Of a DNA stretch of 20,000 bases, positions 1,180-15,658 are shown piece by piece. Made by a program: the position numbers and the translations under genes. The notes under the pieces were generated by a model that had not been told where the DNA came from, did no database searches, and saw nothing but the letters and a program-made list of their open reading frames with translations. The number at the start of each line of letters is the position of its first letter. Within the stretch, counting starts at the first letter, position 1. The DNA comes from an uncultured virus (IMG/VR IMGVR_UViG_3300027751_000014) (Duplodnaviria; Heunggongvirae; Uroviricota; Caudoviricetes): the IMG/VR virus record IMGVR_UViG_3300027751_000014; one strand, given 5' to 3'.

Positions 1180-1228
1180 TATATAAGGTGATTTAGTTCT
1201 TGACAAATGGCATATCTTCTTGTATAAT
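1169..1228 (+). promoter_or_regulatory. sigma70 promoter of rIIA with an upstream IHF-consensus box
   Basis: TTGACA 1200-1205, 17-bp spacer, TATAAT 1223-1228. TAAGTAGTTGATA at 1169-1181 fits YAANNNNTTGATW. Confidence 0.85.
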
Positions 1229-1260
1229 GTAATTACACACTGAGAACAGAGGAAGAAAAG

Positions 1261-3540
1261 ATGAAGTTAGAAGTCAAATCGACTCCCGTATTGACAAGTG
1301 GGCTGCAAACCCAAGGCGAGTTCCGCATCAAGAACTCCGCAAAGGCGTTTTCGATCCTATCCAGCGGCCTGTACTCCAATAAGTACCAAGCAATCCTGCG
1401 AGAGCTGGGCTGTAATGCTTATGACAGTCACGTTGCCGCAGGCAAAGCAGACGTTCCGTTCACTGTTCACCTTCCTACGAGGTTGAACCCGACCCTCAGC
1501 ATCCGTGATTACGGTGTTGGTCTGGATAATGACGGCGTTATCAACATCTACACAACCTATTTTGAAAGCACCAAGCAAGACAGCAACGATTTTGTGGGCT
1601 GCATGGGTCTTGGTAGCAAGTCACCTTTCTCTTACACGACCAACTTCAGTGTCACAGCCATTAAGGATGGCATGAAGCGGGTTTACAGCGCCTTTATTGG
1701 CGACCAAGGCATCCCAAACATTGCGCGGTTGACCGAAGAAAAGACAACCGAAGGCAACGGCGTAGAGGTGTCCTTCCCCGTAGAGCGCGACGATGTGCGC
1801 TATTTTGAACGCGAAGCACGGGGCGTCTTCAAATGGTTCAAGGTCACCCCAACTTTTGAGGGTGTAGATCTTACAGTAGAGAAGCAAGAATACTCGCAGG
1901 AAAACATTGTTCCTGGCGTGCATATTTTGAAGCCGGAGAGTAGCTGGAGCCGCCCCGACTCTGTGGCGGTTATGGGTAACGTGGCCTATCCGATCAACGC
2001 CAAAAACGCAAACCTCAGCAAGGAGTTGGAGAATGTTTACGACAACCTTGGCGTAGCGATTGAATTTGAAATTGGCGAACTGGACATTGCTGCTTCGAGG
2101 GAAGAGTTGAGTTACGTTCCGCTGACAAAGAAGACGCTGGAACGCAAGGGCGAGGAAATCCTCGCAGGATTGGTCGTCTACCTCGAAGAAAAACTGAAGA
2201 CAAAGAAGTCCCCGTGGGAACGTGGTGTACTTTTTAACGAATTGATGGCAACGAACGCGGACTTCTTTAGGCCAGCCATTATACGCTGGATACAGGACAA
2301 CCCCAAGAAGGTTGACAGCATGTCTAAGATCGGTTACACGGACTATAAGGCAGGTATTGAGTACCCGACCCTTATCAAGAAGTTTCCTGATCTGAGGTTT
2401 GTTAGCAACCAAATCCACCACATCAGTTCACGCAACGGTGATGGTCTGCGGATGAGCAACAACGGTGCACAGTATTTTGAAAACACATCTGGTTGCCTCG
2501 TTTGGTGCCCAGCGGAGACGTATGTTGTTCTGCATGATGGCGTTGGCGATGCTAACCGCAGGATTAAGGCGGCATATAACGCAAAAATGTTCCCGAAGAT
2601 GCGCGGAATGGAATTTGTGGTTATAAAGCCCACTGATAAGAAGGCTGATCCTGAAGCGGCGTTCAAGAAGGCATTGAAGATGCTTGGTCGTCCGCATGCA
2701 AGCCAAGTTTTTAGAACCAGCGACATGCCTGGAAACGTAAAAGGCGCAGCCGGCAAGATCGAGAGACAGATCGGTGTTTTGAATTTTGAACAAAGGGACA
2801 ACGGTCGCTATGGTTCAAGGATGTGGACACTAGTTAAGGCAGAAGATGATTTTGCCGATCTTGAGCCGTCAGTTGATACGACATTCCTTTATGTGCCGCT
2901 GATGAATAAGACTATTGTTGGTGAAAACCACAGCTATAGCGCGGAAGGGTTTGTAGAGACATACAAGGACGTAGTCCAGGAACTGTGTGGATTCAATTTG
3001 ACAGACCACCTTTACGGTGTGTTGAAGACGTCCACAAAGGCTATCCAGGAAAAGACGGATTGGAAAAACTTCTTCGATTATATTGAAGCTAAGTTTGACA
3101 AGCTGGATTGGAACAAGCTTCGCAATGCTGCCCTGCTCGTAGAGAACAGGTCACAGATTATTGATTTGGTCGATTTTACAAATGTCTCAGTCAAGGCATT
3201 AGAGAATTATGTAGCGGTTAGCCCAAATACTTCTTTTGGACAGTTGGCTACTATGTATTTGGAGTGCCGCGACGCAAAGAAGAATGATGCCGCAATGCGG
3301 ACCGCAGTATCCCGCTTCAATAACATCCTTGCTTCAATGCGCAAGCTCTTCCCCAAGAAGAACTTTGACAAATATAGCCTGGACTCAAACGAAGTGGCCG
3401 TGGAGAAGTTGGTAGATAAGATAAAAACCAAATACCCAATGTTGAGTGTGGTCAAGTTGGGCAACGATTACTACAATCGCATTGGGAAAGACAAATGGCA
3501 ACTAATGATTGATTATGTGAAGATGATTGACAACAGGTAG
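1261..3540 (+). CDS. rIIA: RIIA-like protein (N-terminal GHKL/HATPase domain)
   Basis: GHKL motifs LRELGCNAYDSH, IRDYGVGL and GCMGLGSKSPFSY; rIIA-type motifs MGNVAYPI and GELDIAASREELSY; 759 aa; directly followed by rIIB. Confidence 0.92.
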   Translation: MKLEVKSTPVLTSGLQTQGEFRIKNSAKAFSILSSGLYSNKYQAILRELGCNAYDSHVAAGKADVPFTVHLPTRLNPTLSIRDYGVGLDNDGVINIYTTYFESTKQDSNDFVGCMGLGSKSPFSYTTNFSVTAIKDGMKRVYSAFIGDQGIPNIARLTEEKTTEGNGVEVSFPVERDDVRYFEREARGVFKWFKVTPTFEGVDLTVEKQEYSQENIVPGVHILKPESSWSRPDSVAVMGNVAYPINAKNANLSKELENVYDNLGVAIEFEIGELDIAASREELSYVPLTKKTLERKGEEILAGLVVYLEEKLKTKKSPWERGVLFNELMATNADFFRPAIIRWIQDNPKKVDSMSKIGYTDYKAGIEYPTLIKKFPDLRFVSNQIHHISSRNGDGLRMSNNGAQYFENTSGCLVWCPAETYVVLHDGVGDANRRIKAAYNAKMFPKMRGMEFVVIKPTDKKADPEAAFKKALKMLGRPHASQVFRTSDMPGNVKGAAGKIERQIGVLNFEQRDNGRYGSRMWTLVKAEDDFADLEPSVDTTFLYVPLMNKTIVGENHSYSAEGFVETYKDVVQELCGFNLTDHLYGVLKTSTKAIQEKTDWKNFFDYIEAKFDKLDWNKLRNAALLVENRSQIIDLVDFTNVSVKALENYVAVSPNTSFGQLATMYLECRDAKKNDAAMRTAVSRFNNILASMRKLFPKKNFDKYSLDSNEVAVEKLVDKIKTKYPMLSVVKLGNDYYNRIGKDKWQLMIDYVKMIDNR

Positions 3541-3550
3541 TAAATACTAC

Positions 3551-3579
3551 TTGACAACGGCACAATATGGTGCTATAAT
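3551..3579 (+). promoter_or_regulatory. sigma70 promoter of rIIB (extended -10)
   Basis: TTGACA 3551-3556, 17 bp, TGC-TATAAT with the -10 at 3574-3579. Preceded by the small inverted repeat GTAGTA-AA-TACTAC (3537-3550). Confidence 0.85.
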
Positions 3580-3606
3580 GTACACAATGCACACAGGAGA
3601 GTAAAG

Positions 3607-4653
3607 ATGTTTCCGTATATTTTGGTTGATGAAGACACACTGACGATTGTGATTGAGAACACTCACCACATTATCAAGCGTGGTCTGCATCCGAAGTTTG
3701 AACAGATCGTAAATGCCATAAAGGCACAGGATTGGGATGCGATTCCTGACCTTGTCGATCTGACCCGTCAACTCGCTAACTATGCCCAAGGTCTCCTTGA
3801 GGTGAAGAATGGCGATGTTTATTGGGATGGTAAGCCCTTCCACAATGCGCTGACAGATCGGTTGCTGCGTATGCTGGAAGACGACTTCCCTGTTGAGCCG
3901 CTAGTCAACTTCCTGCACAATTTGAAGAAGAATCCTTCGAAGCGCGCAGTGGACGAGCTTTATGGCTTCCTGGAAGTTTGCAACCTGCCCATTACGCCCG
4001 ACGGTCACTTCCTCGCCTACAAGAAAGTTCGCAGGGATTATAAGGACGTTTACAGTGGCACGTTTGACAATAGCGTAGGCCAGGTGTGTTCTATGGCTCG
4101 GAACGAGGTGGATGAAGACAAGGATCGCACCTGCTCGCAGGGCTTGCATTTTTGCTCTATCTCCTACCTCAAGTCTTTTGGCGGTGAGCGTGTAATGATT
4201 CTCAAGATTAACCCCGCTGATGTGGTGTCCATCCCTTCGGATTACAACAACTCAAAGGGTCGCACATGGCGCTATGAGGTTATTGGTGAACACACTAGCG
4301 ACTACGACGGCGGCGACGAGTACGAAGATGCGTTTGAAGATGTGGTTGACACGTCTTGGGGCGATTACGAAGACGATTATGAAGATGATTACGAGGATGA
4401 AGAGGATGACGTAGATGACGAAACGCTTTCTGTTCGAGAAGTGTATGTAGACGATTACGGACAGTACCGCTACTCTGACAGTGGTCAGTATGCGAGCAGC
4501 GAAGCGTATCGTGCCTACAATGACTCGCAGGCGGCTAACGAACCTCGTGCGGTCTACAGAGATAGCCAAGGTCGCTATCGTTACGATGATAATGGTCAGT
4601 ATGCATCTCAGGATGCTTACGATGAATACTGGGACTGGAGAGACGACCAGTAA
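3607..4653 (+). CDS. rIIB: RIIB-like protein with an acidic, repeat-containing C-terminal tail
   Basis: Motifs NPSKRAVDELYGFL, LPITPDGHFLAYKKV, CSQGLHFCS and INPADVVSIPSDYNNSKGR are typical of rIIB. RBS AGGAG. Confidence 0.92.
   Translation: MFPYILVDEDTLTIVIENTHHIIKRGLHPKFEQIVNAIKAQDWDAIPDLVDLTRQLANYAQGLLEVKNGDVYWDGKPFHNALTDRLLRMLEDDFPVEPLVNFLHNLKKNPSKRAVDELYGFLEVCNLPITPDGHFLAYKKVRRDYKDVYSGTFDNSVGQVCSMARNEVDEDKDRTCSQGLHFCSISYLKSFGGERVMILKINPADVVSIPSDYNNSKGRTWRYEVIGEHTSDYDGGDEYEDAFEDVVDTSWGDYEDDYEDDYEDEEDDVDDETLSVREVYVDDYGQYRYSDSGQYASSEAYRAYNDSQAANEPRAVYRDSQGRYRYDDNGQYASQDAYDEYWDWRDDQ
4435..4629 (+). repeat. in-frame tandem duplication (period 111 nt, 37 aa) in the rIIB tail
   Basis: REVYVDDYGQYRYSDSGQYASSEAYRAY (4435-4518) versus RAVYRDSQGRYRYDDNGQYASQDAYDEY (4546-4629). 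Confidence 0.85.
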
Positions 4654-4659
4654 TGAATC

Positions 4660-4729
4660 GGGGTGTATTGGCGCAACTCAGTGTGTGAGTCCTTTGCTTC
4701 TTCTCAGCGCCTTTACACCCCACCTTTTT
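4660..4729 (+). terminator. long imperfect stem-loop with T-tract after rIIB (terminator or small RNA)
   Basis: GGGGTGTA/TACACCCC, GGCGC/GCGCC and inner ACTCA/TGAGT pairings, followed by ACCTTTTT. Confidence 0.55.
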
Positions 4730-4956
4730 ATGTGCAGAGCGACAGCTCTGGTTGTGAGCTTGGTCGGTTTTATGTCTTCAATGTGTCACCAAAAAGCACA
4801 CCTGTCGCCCAGGTTGCGAGACATACAATGGCATTGGACCGTAAGAGTGTAACTTTGCGGCTGTCGCCGCGTATGCTTACGGTGGGTGCCATCCTAGTTC
4901 GGCTAGGTTTGGCGCACTAAGTGGGGGGTCCTGAACGGGGAAGCAGGAGCACATAA
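4728..4956 (+). ncRNA. putative multibranched structured RNA of unknown family
   Basis: Closing stem TTATGTGC/GCACATAA encloses five helical arms with further internal hairpins (detailed in findings). No convincing CDS in this interval. Strand assumed from the flanking genes. Confidence 0.55.
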
Positions 4957-4971
4957 TTTATACGGAGGGAT

Positions 4972-6936
4972 ATGAAGAAAACAAGACTACTGTTACCAAA
5001 TTTCAAACTTTCTCCAGCGGAACAATTAGAAGAAGCTGTACGATGCGTATTAGCAGCAGACGAACAGATAGAAACCGCGCTAAACAATGAAACATATACA
5101 TGGGACAATTTGGTTGTCCCTCTTTTGCTTGCTGATAATGAAATCACAAAGGCAAACTCCATCGTGTCATTTTATTACGCTATTGTCAGTGGCGAGGAAT
5201 CCAGTACCGCGCTAAAACAGTTTACAATATTCAGCGCGGCACGAACTAGTAAAATTATTGAAGATGGAAGGATGTTCGCTGCATTGTCCTCGCTAAAGAA
5301 ATCCAAACTAACTAAAAAGCAAAAAGCAATTGTGGAACACCAGTTGCTTTACTTTACACAATCCGGCGCCAGCATTTCACAGGAGAAAAAAGCAGAGCTG
5401 GAAAAAGTTTCAAAACAGCTTACAGAGCAGACCATAGCCTTCCAGTTGAATTATAAAATCTGTGAGGAAGCATGGCAGTTGCACGTTACAGACGAGAGTA
5501 TGTTAGATGGTGTGGATGAAAGCACAAAAAAGATGCTGCACACCGCCGCAAAAGAACAAGGGCTTGATGGTTGGTTGATACGGTATGCAGAAAACACTAT
5601 AGATGAACTTATTAGGGATTGCACAAACCGCACAATGCGACAAAAGCTATTCTTTGCAACGCAGACTATGGCAAGCGATTATAGTACACGCGAAGAAGAT
5701 AATTTCAACCTAATAACAGACATCCTCCATTCAAGGCACAAGAAAGCAAAATTGCTTGGTCATAAAAACTTCGCCTCGTTAGCATTGGAAGGAATGTCGG
5801 TCACCGATCCTGTGCAGATCATACGAATACTAGAGCGCATGATTAGCAAAACGAACAAGAAACTAAAGCGAGAATACAGAGAACTTAGCAAACTGGCGAA
5901 GGGTGAAATCTCAAAACTGGAACGCTGGGACCTCGATCATTATTCTCAACGCTGGAGGGAGGAATTCCTCGAACAGAAACCTATGTCTGACTACCTAGAA
6001 ACAATCCCAACGTTTCGGAGGATGTTGGAATACTTTGGCACATTGCTGGATATAAAATTTGTGGAAGCATCACCGCCGTCAAAGCCGCACAAGTCCGTTA
6101 TGTTTTTTGAAGCCTATAAGGACGATAAACTGCTTGGTGGATTTTACGCAGACATACTACGGCGCCCAGGAAAACACGACGGGGCATGGGTGAATAATTA
6201 TTCCTTCCGTGTGTTTGACGAACCGCAGGTACTTGTGTATGCGCTAAATTATGAAAAGACTATGGGTCACTCAGACCTCATTGTTATGCTGCACGAGTTT
6301 GGTCACCTATTGCATGGCCTATATAATACTAGTCCATATTCCACGTACGGAGGATCGCTATCATTGTCGTGGGATGCGATAGAATTCCCAAGTCAATTTT
6401 TTGAAAACTTTGCCTGGCACCCAGCCTCATTGAAGGTGCTTGCTCGCCACTATGAGACTGGTAGACCACCCACAGCTAAAATGATTGCAACGCAAATAGA
6501 ATCACGTTACGCTGGTTCGGGCTGCTATATGCAACGCTATATTAAGAAAGCCCTAGCCGACATTACCCTCCATTATTCCTACAAGGACAAACCTGATTTT
6601 GTAGACGACACAACGGTGCCTATATTTCACGTAGACGGCATACGTTATCACCAATGGGAAAACAGAATCTTATCGCGTATGCATCATTCCTTTAGCTTTG
6701 ATTCAGGATACGAGTCAATGTACTATGTATACTTTTGGTCGGAAATGATTGCGCGAGATGCGTTTGAACCTTTTATAGAACTAAAAACAAGTTTTGACAT
6801 GGGAACAGAACTCAAAAAGTTTATGACAGCGTTTATTGAACCTGTTGACGAAGACATTAGAAAACTGTTTAAGAAATATATGGGTCGTTCCTTCAATACT
6901 AGAGCATGGGCAAAATTCTACGGCTTCGATAAATAG
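4972..6936 (+). CDS. M3 family zinc oligopeptidase (oligopeptidase A / Dcp-like)
   Basis: HEFGH zinc motif, WDAIEFPSQFFENFAW, GYESMYYVYFWSE and GFYADILRRPGKHDGAW; 654 aa; RBS GGAGG. Confidence 0.92.
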   Translation: MKKTRLLLPNFKLSPAEQLEEAVRCVLAADEQIETALNNETYTWDNLVVPLLLADNEITKANSIVSFYYAIVSGEESSTALKQFTIFSAARTSKIIEDGRMFAALSSLKKSKLTKKQKAIVEHQLLYFTQSGASISQEKKAELEKVSKQLTEQTIAFQLNYKICEEAWQLHVTDESMLDGVDESTKKMLHTAAKEQGLDGWLIRYAENTIDELIRDCTNRTMRQKLFFATQTMASDYSTREEDNFNLITDILHSRHKKAKLLGHKNFASLALEGMSVTDPVQIIRILERMISKTNKKLKREYRELSKLAKGEISKLERWDLDHYSQRWREEFLEQKPMSDYLETIPTFRRMLEYFGTLLDIKFVEASPPSKPHKSVMFFEAYKDDKLLGGFYADILRRPGKHDGAWVNNYSFRVFDEPQVLVYALNYEKTMGHSDLIVMLHEFGHLLHGLYNTSPYSTYGGSLSLSWDAIEFPSQFFENFAWHPASLKVLARHYETGRPPTAKMIATQIESRYAGSGCYMQRYIKKALADITLHYSYKDKPDFVDDTTVPIFHVDGIRYHQWENRILSRMHHSFSFDSGYESMYYVYFWSEMIARDAFEPFIELKTSFDMGTELKKFMTAFIEPVDEDIRKLFKKYMGRSFNTRAWAKFYGFDK

Positions 6937-6965
6937 CGTATACATTGTTTAAAGGAGCATTACAA

Positions 6966-7709
6966 ATGGATTATGGTTTAAAACTAGACAGCTTTGTCTT
7001 GGAAGATTTATACGGCAAAACATTAACAGATCGTCTAAATCAAAAATACCACATAACATGCCTATACCTAGCCAAGCTTGCTTGGCGTAACGTAGACACC
7101 GTGATAAAAGACCTCACGGATATGGGTGCGACAAAAATAAAATTTTATGACAGCCTTGGCGTCCAAGGCTACTTTGCAGAATTTGACGACGTGGCGGTTG
7201 TTGCGTTCCGTGCAACGGAATGGGGCGAGGCTCACGATCTAAAAATTGATTTTACATTTTGGAAGACGGATTTCCGAGGTCTAAAAGCACACAAGGGGTT
7301 TGCAACAGCCATACAAAAAGTGTTGCCTGAAATCGAAGCCGACCTAGCCCTTGTCCCACCAACCAAGCGTGTCCTTTATACGGGTCACAGCCTTGGTGGA
7401 GCATTAGCAGCCATGTTAGCAGTTGTGCGCAAACCAACTGACCTATGCACATTTGGTCAACCTCGCATCTTTGGTGGCACTATCCCCACTGAGATCTACC
7501 AAGGCGTGAACTACCATCGCGTCGTTGTGCAATGGGATTGGGTTCGCCTCATTCCCCCAAACATTCCATTCTTATTGAGCTACAAACACGCTGGGATAAG
7601 GCGTTTGTTGAAGCGAAGAATATCATTCTCTGTACTATGGGCAGGTGACCACAACCTAAGTACATATTTAGAGCTTTTGGTTAAGGAAGATGGCACCCTA
7701 GATTCATAG
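6966..7709 (+). CDS. class-3 lipase (alpha/beta hydrolase)
   Basis: VVAFRATE, AHKGF, nucleophile motif TGHSLGG, TFGQPR, DWVRLIP (Asp) and GDH (His). ATG at 6966 follows AAGGAG. Confidence 0.88.
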   Translation: MDYGLKLDSFVLEDLYGKTLTDRLNQKYHITCLYLAKLAWRNVDTVIKDLTDMGATKIKFYDSLGVQGYFAEFDDVAVVAFRATEWGEAHDLKIDFTFWKTDFRGLKAHKGFATAIQKVLPEIEADLALVPPTKRVLYTGHSLGGALAAMLAVVRKPTDLCTFGQPRIFGGTIPTEIYQGVNYHRVVVQWDWVRLIPPNIPFLLSYKHAGIRRLLKRRISFSVLWAGDHNLSTYLELLVKEDGTLDS

Positions 7710-7753
7710 ATTCTGGTAAATACGTGTATAACTACTAACACAGGGAAACACGT

Positions 7754-8359
7754 ATGAGCCTACAAGATCTAATTAATTCCATTAAGACTACGCCACCAAT
7801 GAATGATCCTAGCCATTTCAATAAGGCTATCATCACTACACTGGAACACGAAGGTGGTTTTAGTAACGATCCCGTTGATCCAGGTGGCGCCACAAACTGG
7901 GGCATGTCCATACGCTATTTGAAAGGTCGCGGCGATTCCGACGGCGACGGCTGGTTAGATGGTGACTTAGATCACGATGGCGACATTGATATTGACGACA
8001 TTAAAAACATGACTACGGAGCAAGCTATTGCACTGTACAAGTCGGGTTTTTGGGACAAATATAATTACGAAACTATACACGACTACACAGTAGCAGCCCG
8101 CGTATTTGACATGACTGTAAATATGGGCGCAATACAAACTGGTAAAATTGTACAGCGAGCACTAAATGCTTGTGGCAACAACTTAGTCGTAGACGGCAAG
8201 GTTGGCCCTAACACTTTTAATGCGATCAATTGCACTAACTCCGAAATGTTAATGTCTGAGATTCGCCAGTTCCATGCTCAATTTTACTTAGACCTAATTG
8301 CTGCAAAACCAGCAATGGCAAAATACAAGAAAGGGTGGTTGCGTAGGGCAGCCGCTTAA
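7754..8359 (+). CDS. glycoside hydrolase family 108 lysozyme with a C-terminal peptidoglycan-binding domain (endolysin candidate)
   Basis: EGGFSNDPVDPGGATNWG catalytic motif, VFDMTVNMG, VDGKVGPNT and KGWLRR. Confidence 0.9.
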   Translation: MSLQDLINSIKTTPPMNDPSHFNKAIITTLEHEGGFSNDPVDPGGATNWGMSIRYLKGRGDSDGDGWLDGDLDHDGDIDIDDIKNMTTEQAIALYKSGFWDKYNYETIHDYTVAARVFDMTVNMGAIQTGKIVQRALNACGNNLVVDGKVGPNTFNAINCTNSEMLMSEIRQFHAQFYLDLIAAKPAMAKYKKGWLRRAAA

Positions 8360-8487
8360 TACTAGTGTTTAATGAGATCCATTATAAAAGATAAATAATA
8401 GTCTCAGAGCACAGCTCTGAAAATATAAAACTGTGTACAAAATTGTGGATTGAAAACGAATAAATAAAATTGGTAATAGGAAAACAT

Positions 8488-9078
8488 ATGATGAATAAGC
8501 TACTCCTACTTTTAATAACAATGTTGCTTTTGACAATTTCAACTACTATGTTTGGTCAACAGCTAGATACTCCGCCTCAAGAAGAATCGGTTACAGCGTT
8601 GGACAAAATGCTAGTGGTATATGAGCAGAAGAAAGCTGAAAATGCTTCAGGACTATCTCCTGAATCCGAACGGCGCCGGCTGCAAAGTGAAATAATTGAC
8701 CTCAAAGTAGAAAAAGATCAACTAACATCTAGAGTAGAATATTTAAAGGCAGAGCTAACGAAGCAACAACGCCCCGTTAGCAATGCTGGGGTTTGTTCTA
8801 AAGAGACAACCTGTATCCCGGCTAAAGAAGTAGAACGCGAAAAGATTACATCACATCTCGTATATAGTCTCAGTCTATACAGATTAGCAGAACTAACTGA
8901 CACAAACTTACCAATCGGCAAGAAATACGTCGAAGCACATACTGCGGCACAGAGAGTAATGCAAAGTGCGATGGGGGATTTAAACCTCTTAGGCTTCGAC
9001 ACATCAGACCCAAATGAATTTCCAAGCCTGGAAGAACTAATTAAGGCTATGGAAATCTCACACGAAGCTCATCGTTAA
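8488..9078 (+). CDS. exported or membrane-anchored coiled-coil protein
   Basis: N-terminal MMNKLLLLLITMLLLTISTTMFG signal or TM segment, a heptad-rich centre and a Cys pair. Confidence 0.7.
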   Translation: MMNKLLLLLITMLLLTISTTMFGQQLDTPPQEESVTALDKMLVVYEQKKAENASGLSPESERRRLQSEIIDLKVEKDQLTSRVEYLKAELTKQQRPVSNAGVCSKETTCIPAKEVEREKITSHLVYSLSLYRLAELTDTNLPIGKKYVEAHTAAQRVMQSAMGDLNLLGFDTSDPNEFPSLEELIKAMEISHEAHR

Positions 9079-9115
9079 AATTATATACATATATTTTAAT
9101 TGAAAGGGATGTGAA

Positions 9116-9505
9116 ATGGAAGAAACATTGGAAAAAATAGACTTAAGGGCACTCATAAAATATGCAGCCACCACCATAGGAATATTATCTGTATTGCTAG
9201 GTAGCTTTGTGTGGATAGAAGACAGATACGTTAATGAAAGTGAATATGTAAGGCACATAGGTTCTCAACGAGATAAATTACTTGGATTAGAAAATAAAGT
9301 AGGCACACTTATAAGTTCAATTGAAGAAGACAGAGATCGAGAATATAACGAAATAATAAAAGAGATTAAAGACGGAAAAATATTTACGTTAGTTGTGCAA
9401 CGAGACATTTTACTAAGTAGAGGTAGAGAAAACCTAACAGCTACGGAATTAGCTGAACTAGATGTATTGAATATAAAGCTAAAAGAGTTGAACGCAACAC
9501 CATAA
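9116..9505 (+). CDS. single-TM membrane protein with a coiled-coil C-terminus
   Basis: Hydrophobic segment YAATTIGILSVLLGSFVWI; AT-rich coding sequence. Confidence 0.7.
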   Translation: MEETLEKIDLRALIKYAATTIGILSVLLGSFVWIEDRYVNESEYVRHIGSQRDKLLGLENKVGTLISSIEEDRDREYNEIIKEIKDGKIFTLVVQRDILLSRGRENLTATELAELDVLNIKLKELNATP

Positions 9506-12028: not shown

Positions 12029-13075
12029 ATGCGTAAATACAAATTAGCCGTATTCATCGGCAGGATGCAGCCACTACACAACGGGCACGTCCAAAACATA
12101 AACAAAGCTTTAGAAATTGCAGACCAGGTTCTTGTGGTCTTAGGCTCGTCCAATGAGCCGCGCACAATCAAAAATCCCTTTACAGTTGAAGAACGCACAG
12201 CCCAAATAGAATCTCTTTGGGGCACCAAAGCCGAAGGAAATTGGCGAGTGCGGGTAGCATCTGTTGAAGATGACCTATACCAAGAAACAAAATGGCTGGA
12301 GGCTGTCCAAGCCGCAGTCCACAACTGGGAAACAAACGACGAGGACATTACAATCCTCGGTCATGAAAAAGATGATTCCAGCTACTACCTAAAAAGCTTC
12401 CCGACCTGGGACTTTACGACTATTGGTGCATACGCTGAGGCTGGCGGCACTGCAATTGACGCAACGAAGATACGCGAACTATATTTTGAAGGACATTTTA
12501 GCTACATAAAATCGGCACTGCCAGTGTCAGTTTACGAGACGCTGATGACCTTCAAAGACACTGAGGCATACGCCCAGCTTGTTAAAGAATTCAATTACAT
12601 CCGCACGTACAAAACTGCATGGGCGCACACGCCATATCCTGTGACATTTTTCACCACAGACGCAGTTGTAATACAGGGCGGACACATCCTACTTATTAGG
12701 CGGCGCGCAGAACCAGGCAAGGGTCTCTGGGCACTTCCTGGCGGCTTCCTCGGTCAAGACGAGACTGCGTTTGATAGCGCAATACGCGAACTGAAGGAAG
12801 AAACCAGATTGAAGGTGCCGGAAGCAGTGTTGCGCGGATCATGCAAAGCCCGCAAACTGTTTGACCACCCTAGCAGGTCATTACGTGGTCGCACAATTAC
12901 ACAAGCGTTTTTGTTTGACCTACCCGACCAGCCCTCACTGCCAAAAGTGAAAGGCGGCGACGATGCGGAAACAGCAAAGTGGTTCGCGCTAGACACAGTT
13001 AAGAACATGTCTCACTCGCTGTTTGAGGACCACAAGTCAATCATCAACATGCTTACAACGAGGGCTGACCAATGA
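12029..13075 (+). CDS. nadM: bifunctional NMN adenylyltransferase / ADP-ribose pyrophosphatase (NadM-Nudix)
   Basis: GRMQPLHNGH (HxGH), KNPFTVEER, GHEKDDSSYYL, DATKIRE, and Nudix box GGFLGQDETAFDSAIRELKEET. Confidence 0.95.
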   Translation: MRKYKLAVFIGRMQPLHNGHVQNINKALEIADQVLVVLGSSNEPRTIKNPFTVEERTAQIESLWGTKAEGNWRVRVASVEDDLYQETKWLEAVQAAVHNWETNDEDITILGHEKDDSSYYLKSFPTWDFTTIGAYAEAGGTAIDATKIRELYFEGHFSYIKSALPVSVYETLMTFKDTEAYAQLVKEFNYIRTYKTAWAHTPYPVTFFTTDAVVIQGGHILLIRRRAEPGKGLWALPGGFLGQDETAFDSAIRELKEETRLKVPEAVLRGSCKARKLFDHPSRSLRGRTITQAFLFDLPDQPSLPKVKGGDDAETAKWFALDTVKNMSHSLFEDHKSIINMLTTRADQ

Positions 13076-13419
13076 GATTTGGTGAAACGGTATATGCAGT
13101 GACGGCACTTGGTGTAGTTAAGGCACGTGTGGTAGGTCACACTACGAACATACGTAGCATATTGAAAGAATACAAACTGATGATGCATATTAACGACAAC
13201 GTAATGCAAGGAAGCTTGGAACGTTGGAAGAAGGAAGAAGTGTTTGCTACGAGGCGTGAAGCTGACAAGCTATATTTTAAACACAATTTGGCAAACACCA
13301 CAGACACATTGTTTAAGACTGAGGGACAGAAGCAAGCAGAACGTAAGGCTCGCGAAGTAGAAATGCAACTAATATTGGAAGCGCAGAATCCCAGTCAATA
13401 TACGTGGAGCAAGAAATGA
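13072..13419 (+). CDS. hypothetical protein
   Basis: ATGA overlap with the nadM stop; 115 aa. Confidence 0.7.
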   Translation: MRFGETVYAVTALGVVKARVVGHTTNIRSILKEYKLMMHINDNVMQGSLERWKKEEVFATRREADKLYFKHNLANTTDTLFKTEGQKQAERKAREVEMQLILEAQNPSQYTWSKK

Positions 13420-13931
13420 ACGTACAAGAACTAAAAACTTTTATGAAGAATCAGGCACACCTCATGCGGCATTTGCACGGAGTTGATGATGCTACTGCAA
13501 AACGCTGGACAGAAGCAGAAGCCGCGGTTCTAGGATTAACCGAGACAAGCGGCGAAAAGTTAGCGAAGTATTTACGCCTTTTGCAATGGTTAACGCTTCC
13601 AACGTACGATTCGGTTGAGGCTGGTCACGAAGTAATGTCGAAGATGTGTGAGCCAGGTTCAGTCATAAGATTCATCGTAAATATTCCGAAGCCAATTGTA
13701 GAAAGAAAGGTTCGTCCAGACGGAACTGAATATGATGAGGTGCAAGAATACTGTGCATATCGAATTCATCGCGGACATTGGCAACGAGATGAACACGGTG
13801 TATTCAGTGTTTTTGTATCCCACGTAGATTTTGCAATATCTCCAACAGATTTAAGTGATGCGCGGCGCGCAGCAATTATAGAGCTTGGCGAAAAGCATAT
13901 ATTAGAACATGAGAAAGGAGAACAGAAATGA
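13416..13931 (+). CDS. hypothetical protein
   Basis: ATG at 13416 overlaps the upstream TGA; GGAG at 13406-13409. Confidence 0.7.
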   Translation: MNVQELKTFMKNQAHLMRHLHGVDDATAKRWTEAEAAVLGLTETSGEKLAKYLRLLQWLTLPTYDSVEAGHEVMSKMCEPGSVIRFIVNIPKPIVERKVRPDGTEYDEVQEYCAYRIHRGHWQRDEHGVFSVFVSHVDFAISPTDLSDARRAAIIELGEKHILEHEKGEQK

Positions 13932-14125
13932 CTATTGCAACAATTGTAGTAAGCAAAGAACAGCTAACGAAGATTATTGAAGCCCACTATAATGCGCAAG
14001 GTCTTAAAACGTTAGGTGTTAGTATTAACGTAGGAATGACATATCCTGAACGTAGCGAGCAGACAATAGCAACGTTTAAAAATGTTGAAGTGAAAGTTGA
14101 ATTAGGTAACGTAAAAGCCCTGTAA
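13928..14125 (+). CDS. small hypothetical protein
   Basis: ATGA overlap, AAAGGAG RBS; 65 aa. Confidence 0.7.
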   Translation: MTIATIVVSKEQLTKIIEAHYNAQGLKTLGVSINVGMTYPERSEQTIATFKNVEVKVELGNVKAL

Positions 14126-14155
14126 TAGAACAGGCATATTTGTAAGGAGTTTACA

Positions 14156-15658
14156 ATGAGCATTTTAAATGAAATTAGAGAAACATATGGCGTTGCTGGC
14201 GATACAGACAGCTACAAATTTTCGCACCCTGCACAGTATGTAGAAGGTGCTGACAAGCTGATGAGCTACATTGAGAGCAGAGGCGGCGATTATAAAGAAG
14301 TGGTATTCTTCGGATTGCAGCTAATCCTCAAAGAATACTTCCTGGAAAGAATGACCCACAAACAAGTGGACAACATCATCGCCTTCCAGCGTGAACACCT
14401 ATTTGGTGTAGAAATTGACAAGCTTGAGGTTGCGCTACGAGCAGTAGTTGACGACTACGACGGCTACATGCCGCTGCGAATCAAAGCAGTCCAAGAAGGC
14501 ACAGTGGTTCCTACGGGCAACGTGTTGGTGACAGTTGAGACGACCGTGGAAGATCCGCGCGTATTCTCGCTGGTCACATACATGGAAACCAAGCTGATGA
14601 GGCTCTGGTCACCTACAACGGTTGCAACGACATCCTACCACATTAAAAAGATCATCTACAACGCACTGAAGCGCACAGCCGACGACGCTGATGCAGAAAT
14701 CGGTTTTAAACTGCATGACTTTGGTTCACGTGGTGTGAGTAGTTTGGAAACCGCTGCATTTGCAGGTGCTGCTCACCTTGTAAACTTCCTCGGAAGCGAT
14801 ACGACAGTGGGTATTATGGCTGCGAACATCGGCTATAACACGCAAATGGCTGGCTACAGCATTCCTGCTACAGAACATAGCACGACCACAAGCTTTGGAC
14901 GCCACGGCGAAGAGGCACTGGTGCAGCGTATGTTTGACAACTTTGCAAAACCTGGCGCAATTTTCGCTACGGTCGCTGACAGTTACGACATTATGAACTT
15001 TGTGGAAACGATTGCTCCCAAGTTTAAGAAGCAGTTACGCGAAAGCGGCGCGACTTGGGTCATCCGTCCTGACAGCGGCGATGCAGTTGAGACCCCTGTC
15101 GAATTGGTGCGCAGGTTGTCCAGGATCTTTGGATTTACGTACAACAAGAAAGGCTTTAAAGTTCTTGACGGTGTGCGCGTGATCCAAGGTGACGGCATTG
15201 ACATTAACGATGTGCGAGCAATTGTTGAGAAGCTGGAAGCTGAACAGTTTAGCATTAGCAACATTGCGTTTGGTATGGGCGGCGGCTTGCTGCAAAAAAA
15301 TAACAGGGACACCCTCAAGTTTGCGATGAAGGCTTGCGCGGTTCATGTTGACGGTGTGTGGCATGATGTGTACAAAGATCCGACTATCTACGATGCAACA
15401 AGCTGGAAGCCCCTCGCTTCAAGTTTTAAGAAGTCCAAAGCTGGTCGCTTGGAATTGCTGTACAACGGTACAGACTACAAGACAGTGCGAGTTGAGGAAG
15501 TTGCTGAATACGTAGCTGACGGTTACAAGGCAATGCTTGAGACTGTATACGATCATGGCAAGCTTGTGCGAGACATGAACTTTGAGCAGGTGCGCGAAAA
15601 CGCAAAACTGCCTGAGGAACGTGTACACACTGCAAAGGTTGAAAGCGAGGTGGCGTAA
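14156..15658 (+). CDS. nadV: nicotinamide phosphoribosyltransferase (NAMPT)
   Basis: DTDSYKFSH, VFFGLQ, KLHDFGSRG, SIPATEHS, VADSYD, VIRPDSGD, IQGDGI and FGMGGGLLQ. Confidence 0.95.
   Translation: MSILNEIRETYGVAGDTDSYKFSHPAQYVEGADKLMSYIESRGGDYKEVVFFGLQLILKEYFLERMTHKQVDNIIAFQREHLFGVEIDKLEVALRAVVDDYDGYMPLRIKAVQEGTVVPTGNVLVTVETTVEDPRVFSLVTYMETKLMRLWSPTTVATTSYHIKKIIYNALKRTADDADAEIGFKLHDFGSRGVSSLETAAFAGAAHLVNFLGSDTTVGIMAANIGYNTQMAGYSIPATEHSTTTSFGRHGEEALVQRMFDNFAKPGAIFATVADSYDIMNFVETIAPKFKKQLRESGATWVIRPDSGDAVETPVELVRRLSRIFGFTYNKKGFKVLDGVRVIQGDGIDINDVRAIVEKLEAEQFSISNIAFGMGGGLLQKNNRDTLKFAMKACAVHVDGVWHDVYKDPTIYDATSWKPLASSFKKSKAGRLELLYNGTDYKTVRVEEVAEYVADGYKAMLETVYDHGKLVRDMNFEQVRENAKLPEERVHTAKVESEVA

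Follow-up and report, generated by a model that had tools for sequence, protein, structure and literature searches.

A conserved structured RNA with a kissing loop downstream of rIIB in a clade of T4-like jumbo phages

The rIIB locus and its two non-coding elements

The 20,000-nucleotide stretch of DNA analysed here (the window) lies in a T4-like jumbo phage fragment of 69 kb (about 19% complete), in which rIIA and rIIB are followed by 318 non-coding bases and then by genes for an M3 peptidase, a lipase and a lysozyme. The nearest cultured relatives of rIIA and rIIB are found in Xanthomonas phage Xoo-sp13 and in Pseudomonas phages of the PA5oct group. rIIB (3607..4653, + strand; PHROG 609, E 4e-76) lies directly 5′ of a pair of elements that we call A (4660..4721, +) and B (4728..4956, +), and the M3 peptidase gene (4972..6936, +; PF01432, E 1e-63) follows with a ribosome-binding site, GGAGG, at 4964-68. 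A first-pass annotation of the gap had proposed a single RNA there and missed element A. The sole candidate for transcribing both elements is a sigma-70-type promoter 5′ of rIIB (3551..3579, +), which matches the consensus at 12 of 12 positions; no further site of this type was found on the + strand from the rIIB start to 5200.

Several other features of these genomes were recorded. The tail of rIIB (4300-4653) encodes an acidic stretch and two copies of a tyrosine-rich motif of about 30 residues, of which homologs carry one or two. Genes for a cREC receiver domain and for a protein like the C-terminal part of ribosomal L7/L12 lie 5′ of rIIA in four of five fragments (210-883 in the window, 7337-8222 in L124), and common to all five is a NAD salvage pair consisting of a nucleotidyltransferase-Nudix fusion and a nicotinamide phosphoribosyltransferase (12029-15658 in the window). 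Outside the window, ARAGORN called one tRNA with the anticodon CUA, a possible amber reader (G000:C1 28660-28735, minus strand), and a relative (L123 3792-4970), whose record also has two tRNA-Leu calls, encodes a PF01743 head domain of the poly(A) polymerase/CCA-adding type.

Homologs, fold and kissing loop of element B

A protein search with rIIB uncovered a second locus, L002, where the sequence 3′ of rIIB is similar, and a short conserved motif was drawn from it. Searching viral sequences with this motif gave 6 stretches, 5 of them true including the window's own, and searching metagenomes gave 24, of which 22 were true and 2 were again the window's own. Once duplicates and cut contigs had been removed, 18 distinct full-length homologs were aligned with the window left out, and a covariance model of element B (R1) was built from them. 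R1 matches the window at 4729-4956 on the + strand with 34.8 bits (E 6.9e-10; next best 6.8 bits), in good agreement with the boundaries of 4728-4956 originally proposed. Training-set members score 128-194 bits, which makes the window an outlier and the most divergent member of the family.

A motif-independent search of the best 80 of 197 rIIB loci gave matches to the A and B models in the five best loci but in 0 of the remaining 75, many of which have terminator-like hairpins of the ordinary kind after rIIB. The family is limited to one clade of T4-like jumbo phages; element B is single-copy in the fragments searched and 200-245 nt long, roughly 230 in the window. BLAST of the element against cultured phages returned chance fragments only. 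R1 matched none of the four whole genomes of Xoo-sp13, MIJ3, XacN1 and RAS14, a weak result given that this search did not recover the element even from the genome that contains the window. A 3′-end pattern found 34 loci in prokaryote genomes, none full-length, and a second pattern found 77 loci in viral contigs, of which only the 4 already known scored. A partial R1 match of 22 bits in a bacterial genome bin (L139 498-585, minus strand), without the middle 140 positions, was rejected as probably an effect of the search pattern.

Element B folds into two four-way junctions joined by a helix, P3, and not into the one five-armed junction first proposed, in which P3 and the base of P6 had been missed. 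The RNA is closed by P1 (4728..4735 paired with 4949-4956; 97.8% of cells paired), followed by the P2 hairpin (4736..4749, tip L2 at 4739-4745), where all five pairs change on both sides, and by a single-stranded junction of about 9 bases, J2/3 (4750..4757), in which GGU is invariant and GGUAGAG is found in most homologs. P3 (4758..4764 with 4916-4922; three of the six pairs vary on both sides) then leads to the junction of the variable P4 domain (4765..4837, with a helix at 4771-78/4818-25), the P5 arm (4838..4883, tip L5 at 4861-4867) and the P6 arm (4886..4915, base 4886-91/4910-15). The chain returns via P3 to a G-rich junction strand and the P7 hairpin (4922..4948, P7 itself at 4929-33/4944-48), whose loop ends in GGAA and in which 5 of 7 pairs change on both sides. 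All of these parts are on the + strand.

The homologs demonstrate this secondary structure. Over the 18 sequences the 37 pairs of the eight helices are 90.5% paired, and 22 of the 37 change on both sides, a count that kinship inflates. None of 500 shuffles reaches the observed level, and sliding the partners lowers pairing to 31-44%; since the homologs share ancestry and were mostly recovered by way of the loop of element A, the shuffle counts overstate significance. The core pairs contain 93 G-U against 14 A-C combinations, an excess that places the RNA on the + strand. The R1 match and the covarying core helices uphold the first-pass annotation's main proposal, a structured multibranched non-coding RNA on the + strand.

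The helices it had listed are all present in the sequence where it placed them, namely the closing stem 4728-35/4949-56, the first arm (a), TATGTCT/AGACATA, CCTG/CAGG, ATGGCA/TGCCAT, ACCGTAAG/CTTACGGT, GCGGC/GCCGC, CCTAG/CTAGG and TCCTG/CAGGA, along with GCGACAG at 4739-45. Their coordinates are sound overall, apart from C4735 being counted in both the closing stem and the first arm. ATGGCA/TGCCAT is not part of the conserved fold: it has no counterpart in the homologs and is a window-only alternative, with equal energies for the fold that contains it and the homolog-guided fold (−80.0 and −80.1).

Folding energy, a check suggested at the outset, was less telling. The + strand of the window is only modestly beyond chance (z −2.04, with 9 of 200 shuffles as good), the − strand is stronger (z −3.91), and values across the homologs run from −0.39 to −4.07 (30 shuffles each) and are weak in several. 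The better-folding − strand, the ordinary terminator-like hairpins after rIIB in so many other loci and the late promoter described below, a DNA signal, would suit a region with no RNA function at all, acting as a terminator, promoter or cruciform in the DNA or holding an 85-codon frame (4663-4920). We consider this highly improbable in view of eight covarying helices and a covarying kiss, the G-U excess on one strand, and stops in every + strand frame of 18/18 homologs. Element B is almost certainly a real conserved structured RNA.

The tips of P2 and P5 are complementary over 5-9 bp in 18 of the 19 sequences and over 4 in the last. This complementarity, the kiss, persists through about ten different loop sequences while the arm length stays fixed; the P2 tip reads GCGACAG in the window and GATAAGA, CTATAC, TTATAG, TTTGGT, TGTGGG, ATGGA, GTTGG or TTGGC elsewhere. 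Cognate loops score 14.05 as opposed to 9.01 for swapped loops (0 of 200,000 permutations), and with the window left out nine loop types give 1 of 200,000, the loop windows for the test having been picked after the pattern had been seen. These results demonstrate the kiss. The P5 arm measures 36-42 nt in 17/19 sequences, the two exceptions having side hairpins, while P4 varies from 44 to 78; P5 behaves as a ruler, and its fixed length suggests that the kiss lies within one molecule.

Two copies of CTGTCGCC had originally been put forward as partners of GCGACAG. Both copies are present, at 4802-09 and 4861-68, and the kiss at 4861-67 is conserved, but the copy at 4802-4809, in P4, is confined to the window: the same complementarity test on the P4 region gave no excess across homologs (p 0.40), so the second CTGTCGCC is private to it. 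This copy may be a spare docking site; among 20,000 dinucleotide shuffles, 1.3% contain a duplicated 8-mer together with a 7-base complement. That low chance rate would also fit an intermolecular kiss that assembles the RNA into dimers, rings or cages, in the manner of ROOL, GOLLD or the phi29 packaging RNA, with the second CTGTCGCC as an extra dock, and covariation is blind to the difference between an intra- and an intermolecular kiss. According to 10.1101/2024.12.08.627333, the ROOL kissing loop, first seen by covariation, proved to lie between chains, while the raiA RNA, similar to B in size, is a monomer. Element B has one conserved kiss only, the second site is absent from homologs and the P5 arm length would fit a within-chain contact, which make multimers distinctly improbable in our estimation.

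Element A, expression and known RNAs

Element A, which always follows the rIIB stop directly and precedes B, consists of a covarying stem of 15-16 bp, a CU-rich loop (4689-4707) and a U run. Of the 16 stem pairs, 9 have both bases changed among the sequences compared, against 0 of 500 shuffles. The loop is identical in the homologs, while the copy in the window has one extra base and one substitution. As most homologs were found through this loop, part of its invariance comes from the search itself; it is present in 5/5 loci found by protein. Five loci, namely L095 and, among the 19 full-length ones, L094, L104, L105 and L112, carry an extra terminator-like hairpin of about 30-35 bases, G+C-rich with a T-rich tail, between A and B. 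No shared target for the A loop was seen among its ten best phage sites in five fragments. Against E. coli rRNA the loop has a 10-base complement at 16S position 493 with an energy no better than 40 shuffles, its pairing with the G-rich strands of B is no better than shuffles in 19/19 sequences, and matches of B itself to rRNA (8-11 bases) are of chance length.

One metatranscriptome contig (run X1; 166 nt, identical, depth 3.4) covers 4787..4952, inside B and ending in the 3′ strand of P1. The run was chosen with this same stretch; the contig is its single match, and the missing cover over the rest of window positions 1200-9200 is given no weight. It is only a hint of expression, as library DNA is possible and the contig gives neither strand nor readable ends.

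Searching Rfam 15 with the window gave 3 matches at E<=5, none of them in 4640-4990, and 10 homolog loci gave 5 matches at E<=10, all far below the gathering score. ARAGORN found no tRNA or tmRNA gene in the window. In line with the first reading of the sequence, element B therefore matches no tRNA, tmRNA, SRP, RNase P or intron known to Rfam 15 or ARAGORN; it also has no CCA after P1, a P7 loop of 8-10 nt as opposed to the 7-base T-loop, and no conserved open frame. Possible likenesses to tRNA, tmRNA, SRP, boxA and cobalamin-riboswitch motifs found no confirmation. In build, element B resembles kissing-loop riboswitches and the VS ribozyme, with no match to an Rfam 15 model of either. Cobalamin and lysine riboswitch aptamers likewise combine a junction with a kissing loop of free sequence and fixed pairing, 5′ of a gene, but B has no Rfam match, its next gene has been exchanged and a late promoter lies inside it, and no expression platform was seen in the consensus folds, with 8-27 bases between P1 and the start codon. 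The VS ribozyme, of about 150-230 nt, has two linked junctions and a distal arm docked by a kissing loop, as B does; its junctions are three-way and its kissing stem holds the substrate internal loop, whereas P2 of B is a plain hairpin of 5-6 bp.

CsrB and RsmZ are protein-sponge RNAs with several GGA motifs, and B may be likened to them through the decoy role proposed below. GGA occurs 3-10 times per RNA in the B family, but mostly in junctions as GNGGA and within a globular fold rather than a row of hairpins, and ANGGA occurs 0-2 times per RNA in 19/19; membership was rejected. Retron and DRT non-coding RNAs were likewise rejected, the neighbours of B being rIIB and a protease and PF00078 appearing in 0/5 fragments. 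The Ro60/Rsr gene that marks bacterial Y RNAs (PF05731) is found in 0/5 fragments of 9-32% completeness, and in none adjacent to B.

Like B, ROOL and GOLLD are phage-encoded and ornate RNAs with covarying kissing loops and a function that is unknown according to 10.1101/2024.12.08.627333. They measure 650-800+ nt, often lie near tRNA islands and form cages, unlike B, which follows rIIB and has one conserved kiss; B is also too short for either class (200-245 nt, with >600 nt required) and matches neither model. The same paper describes the raiA motif RNA, also compact, multi-junction (about 205 nt) and of unknown function, which differs from B in being bacterial and chromosomal, B having no Rfam match and another helix order and context. 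The leaders of T4 gene e and I-TevI share with B a late promoter embedded in structure on early read-through transcripts, as set out in PMC3014915, but are single hairpins that bury the ribosome-binding site, which in B lies outside an eight-helix fold.

A literature search, with most subscription papers outside its reach, found no published description of element B. Two motifs were not found in the searched supplements of PMC10690425, a set of ten thousand candidate viral RNAs, the rest of which may hold B. Element B apparently represents an undescribed RNA class, new at class level within a broad kind that is known, the orphan phage RNA.

Exchange of the downstream gene and possible roles

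rIIB lies 5′ of the RNA pair in 17 of 18 homologs, the remaining contig being cut. The gene 3′ of element B is ClpP-like (PF00574, E 2e-20) in 17/18, the contig of the 18th ending there, and encodes the M3 peptidase in the window, which demonstrates an exchange of the next gene. Phage MIJ3 (L011 3816-5837) has an M3 oligopeptidase right 3′ of rIIB, after a short spacer without the RNA, and this protein is 25% identical to the M3 peptidase of the window. In 18/18 homologs, but not in the window, P6 contains the motif TAAATA. Of the 49 copies of TAAATA on the main coding strand of the window's genome, 29 are intergenic, against an intergenic share of about 12% for the genome, and the motif precedes many structural genes. 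It is looped in some predicted folds of B and paired in others, which fits a DNA signal, and ATAAATA has been described as the probable late promoter of phages CBB and GAP32 (PMC5259590).

The first-pass annotation had suggested a switch whose 3′ end lies just upstream of the peptidase gene, and this is weakened by the different protease in the homologs, the late-promoter motif inside the RNA, and the start codon 8-27 bases after P1. In a broader version, B would regulate the downstream protease in cis. Here the fold on early read-through transcripts, or a ligand- or protein-bound form of it, would limit translation, and late transcripts started at TAAATA, without the 5′ three quarters of B, would be translated, as in T4 gene e and I-TevI. 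A junction with a kissing loop is typical of riboswitch aptamers and was counted for this possibility; B also ends 8-27 bases before the start codon in 19/19 sequences, both downstream genes encode proteases, and T4 likewise places a late promoter within an inhibitory structure (PMC3014915). Against it, the ribosome-binding site lies outside P1 at a variable distance in the downstream sequences examined, the consensus folds show no covarying alternative helix or terminator at the 3′ end, and the RNA outlived both the replacement of the gene and the loss of the promoter motif in the window. The swapped next gene and the late promoter inside the RNA argue that B is not tied to the peptidase, and we regard cis regulation as unlikely.

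Element B has junction and internal-loop bases that are invariant in 18/18 homologs. The window departs from several of these otherwise invariant bases, with two GGA changed to GGG and GAAC lost, and keeps the fold. Invariant bases held in a fixed geometry by a sequence-free kiss could point to a new class of ribozyme that cleaves its own RNA or the polycistronic transcript, in which the kiss would bring the P5 internal loop against the junction strands, with the VS ribozyme kissing loop as a parallel (PMC4138328). No Rfam ribozyme model matches, and several of the invariant bases are missing from the window; the loss of such bases from a kept fold would suit a partner-specific surface better than a catalytic core. 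Catalysis seems to us quite unlikely.

Our preferred reading, a tentative one that we would place just short of even, is that element B is a stable, free-standing, protein-binding early phage RNA acting as a decoy or scaffold. It would be transcribed early together with rIIB from the sigma-70-type promoter; the terminator-like hairpin between A and B in some loci means that read-through from this promoter must be assumed. The transcript would then be trimmed to the unit closed by P1 and would fold into the two four-way junctions that covariation supports. The fixed-length P5 would dock its tip on that of P2, a pairing backed by covariation and placed within one molecule by the arm length, and the resulting clamp would hold the purine-rich strands GGU, GNGGA, GGGGA, GGAA and GAAC as a protein-binding surface for a host or phage protein. 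The late promoter in P6 would be a DNA signal for the next gene, laid over a variable arm, and element A a companion RNA with its invariant loop read by something that does not vary. As candidate partners, neither Ro60/TROVE nor reverse transcriptase was found in five fragments, each 9-32% complete.

A bolder proposal, which we hold to be rather doubtful, joins A and B into a two-RNA phage module of a new class. B would be a new ribozyme or a counter-defence RNA that traps proteins and is made with rIIAB, and A would carry transcription through terminators into B.

To our knowledge, lytic jumbo phages have so far yielded few structured RNAs of such complexity. Element B is small enough to transcribe, probe and image, and its approximately ten natural compensatory loop pairs are ready-made controls for the kiss. 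Motifs of this kind, with invariant bases in the junctions of a new fold, have yielded new ribozymes, riboswitches and decoy RNAs, and element B adjoins rIIAB, genes whose work is poorly understood.
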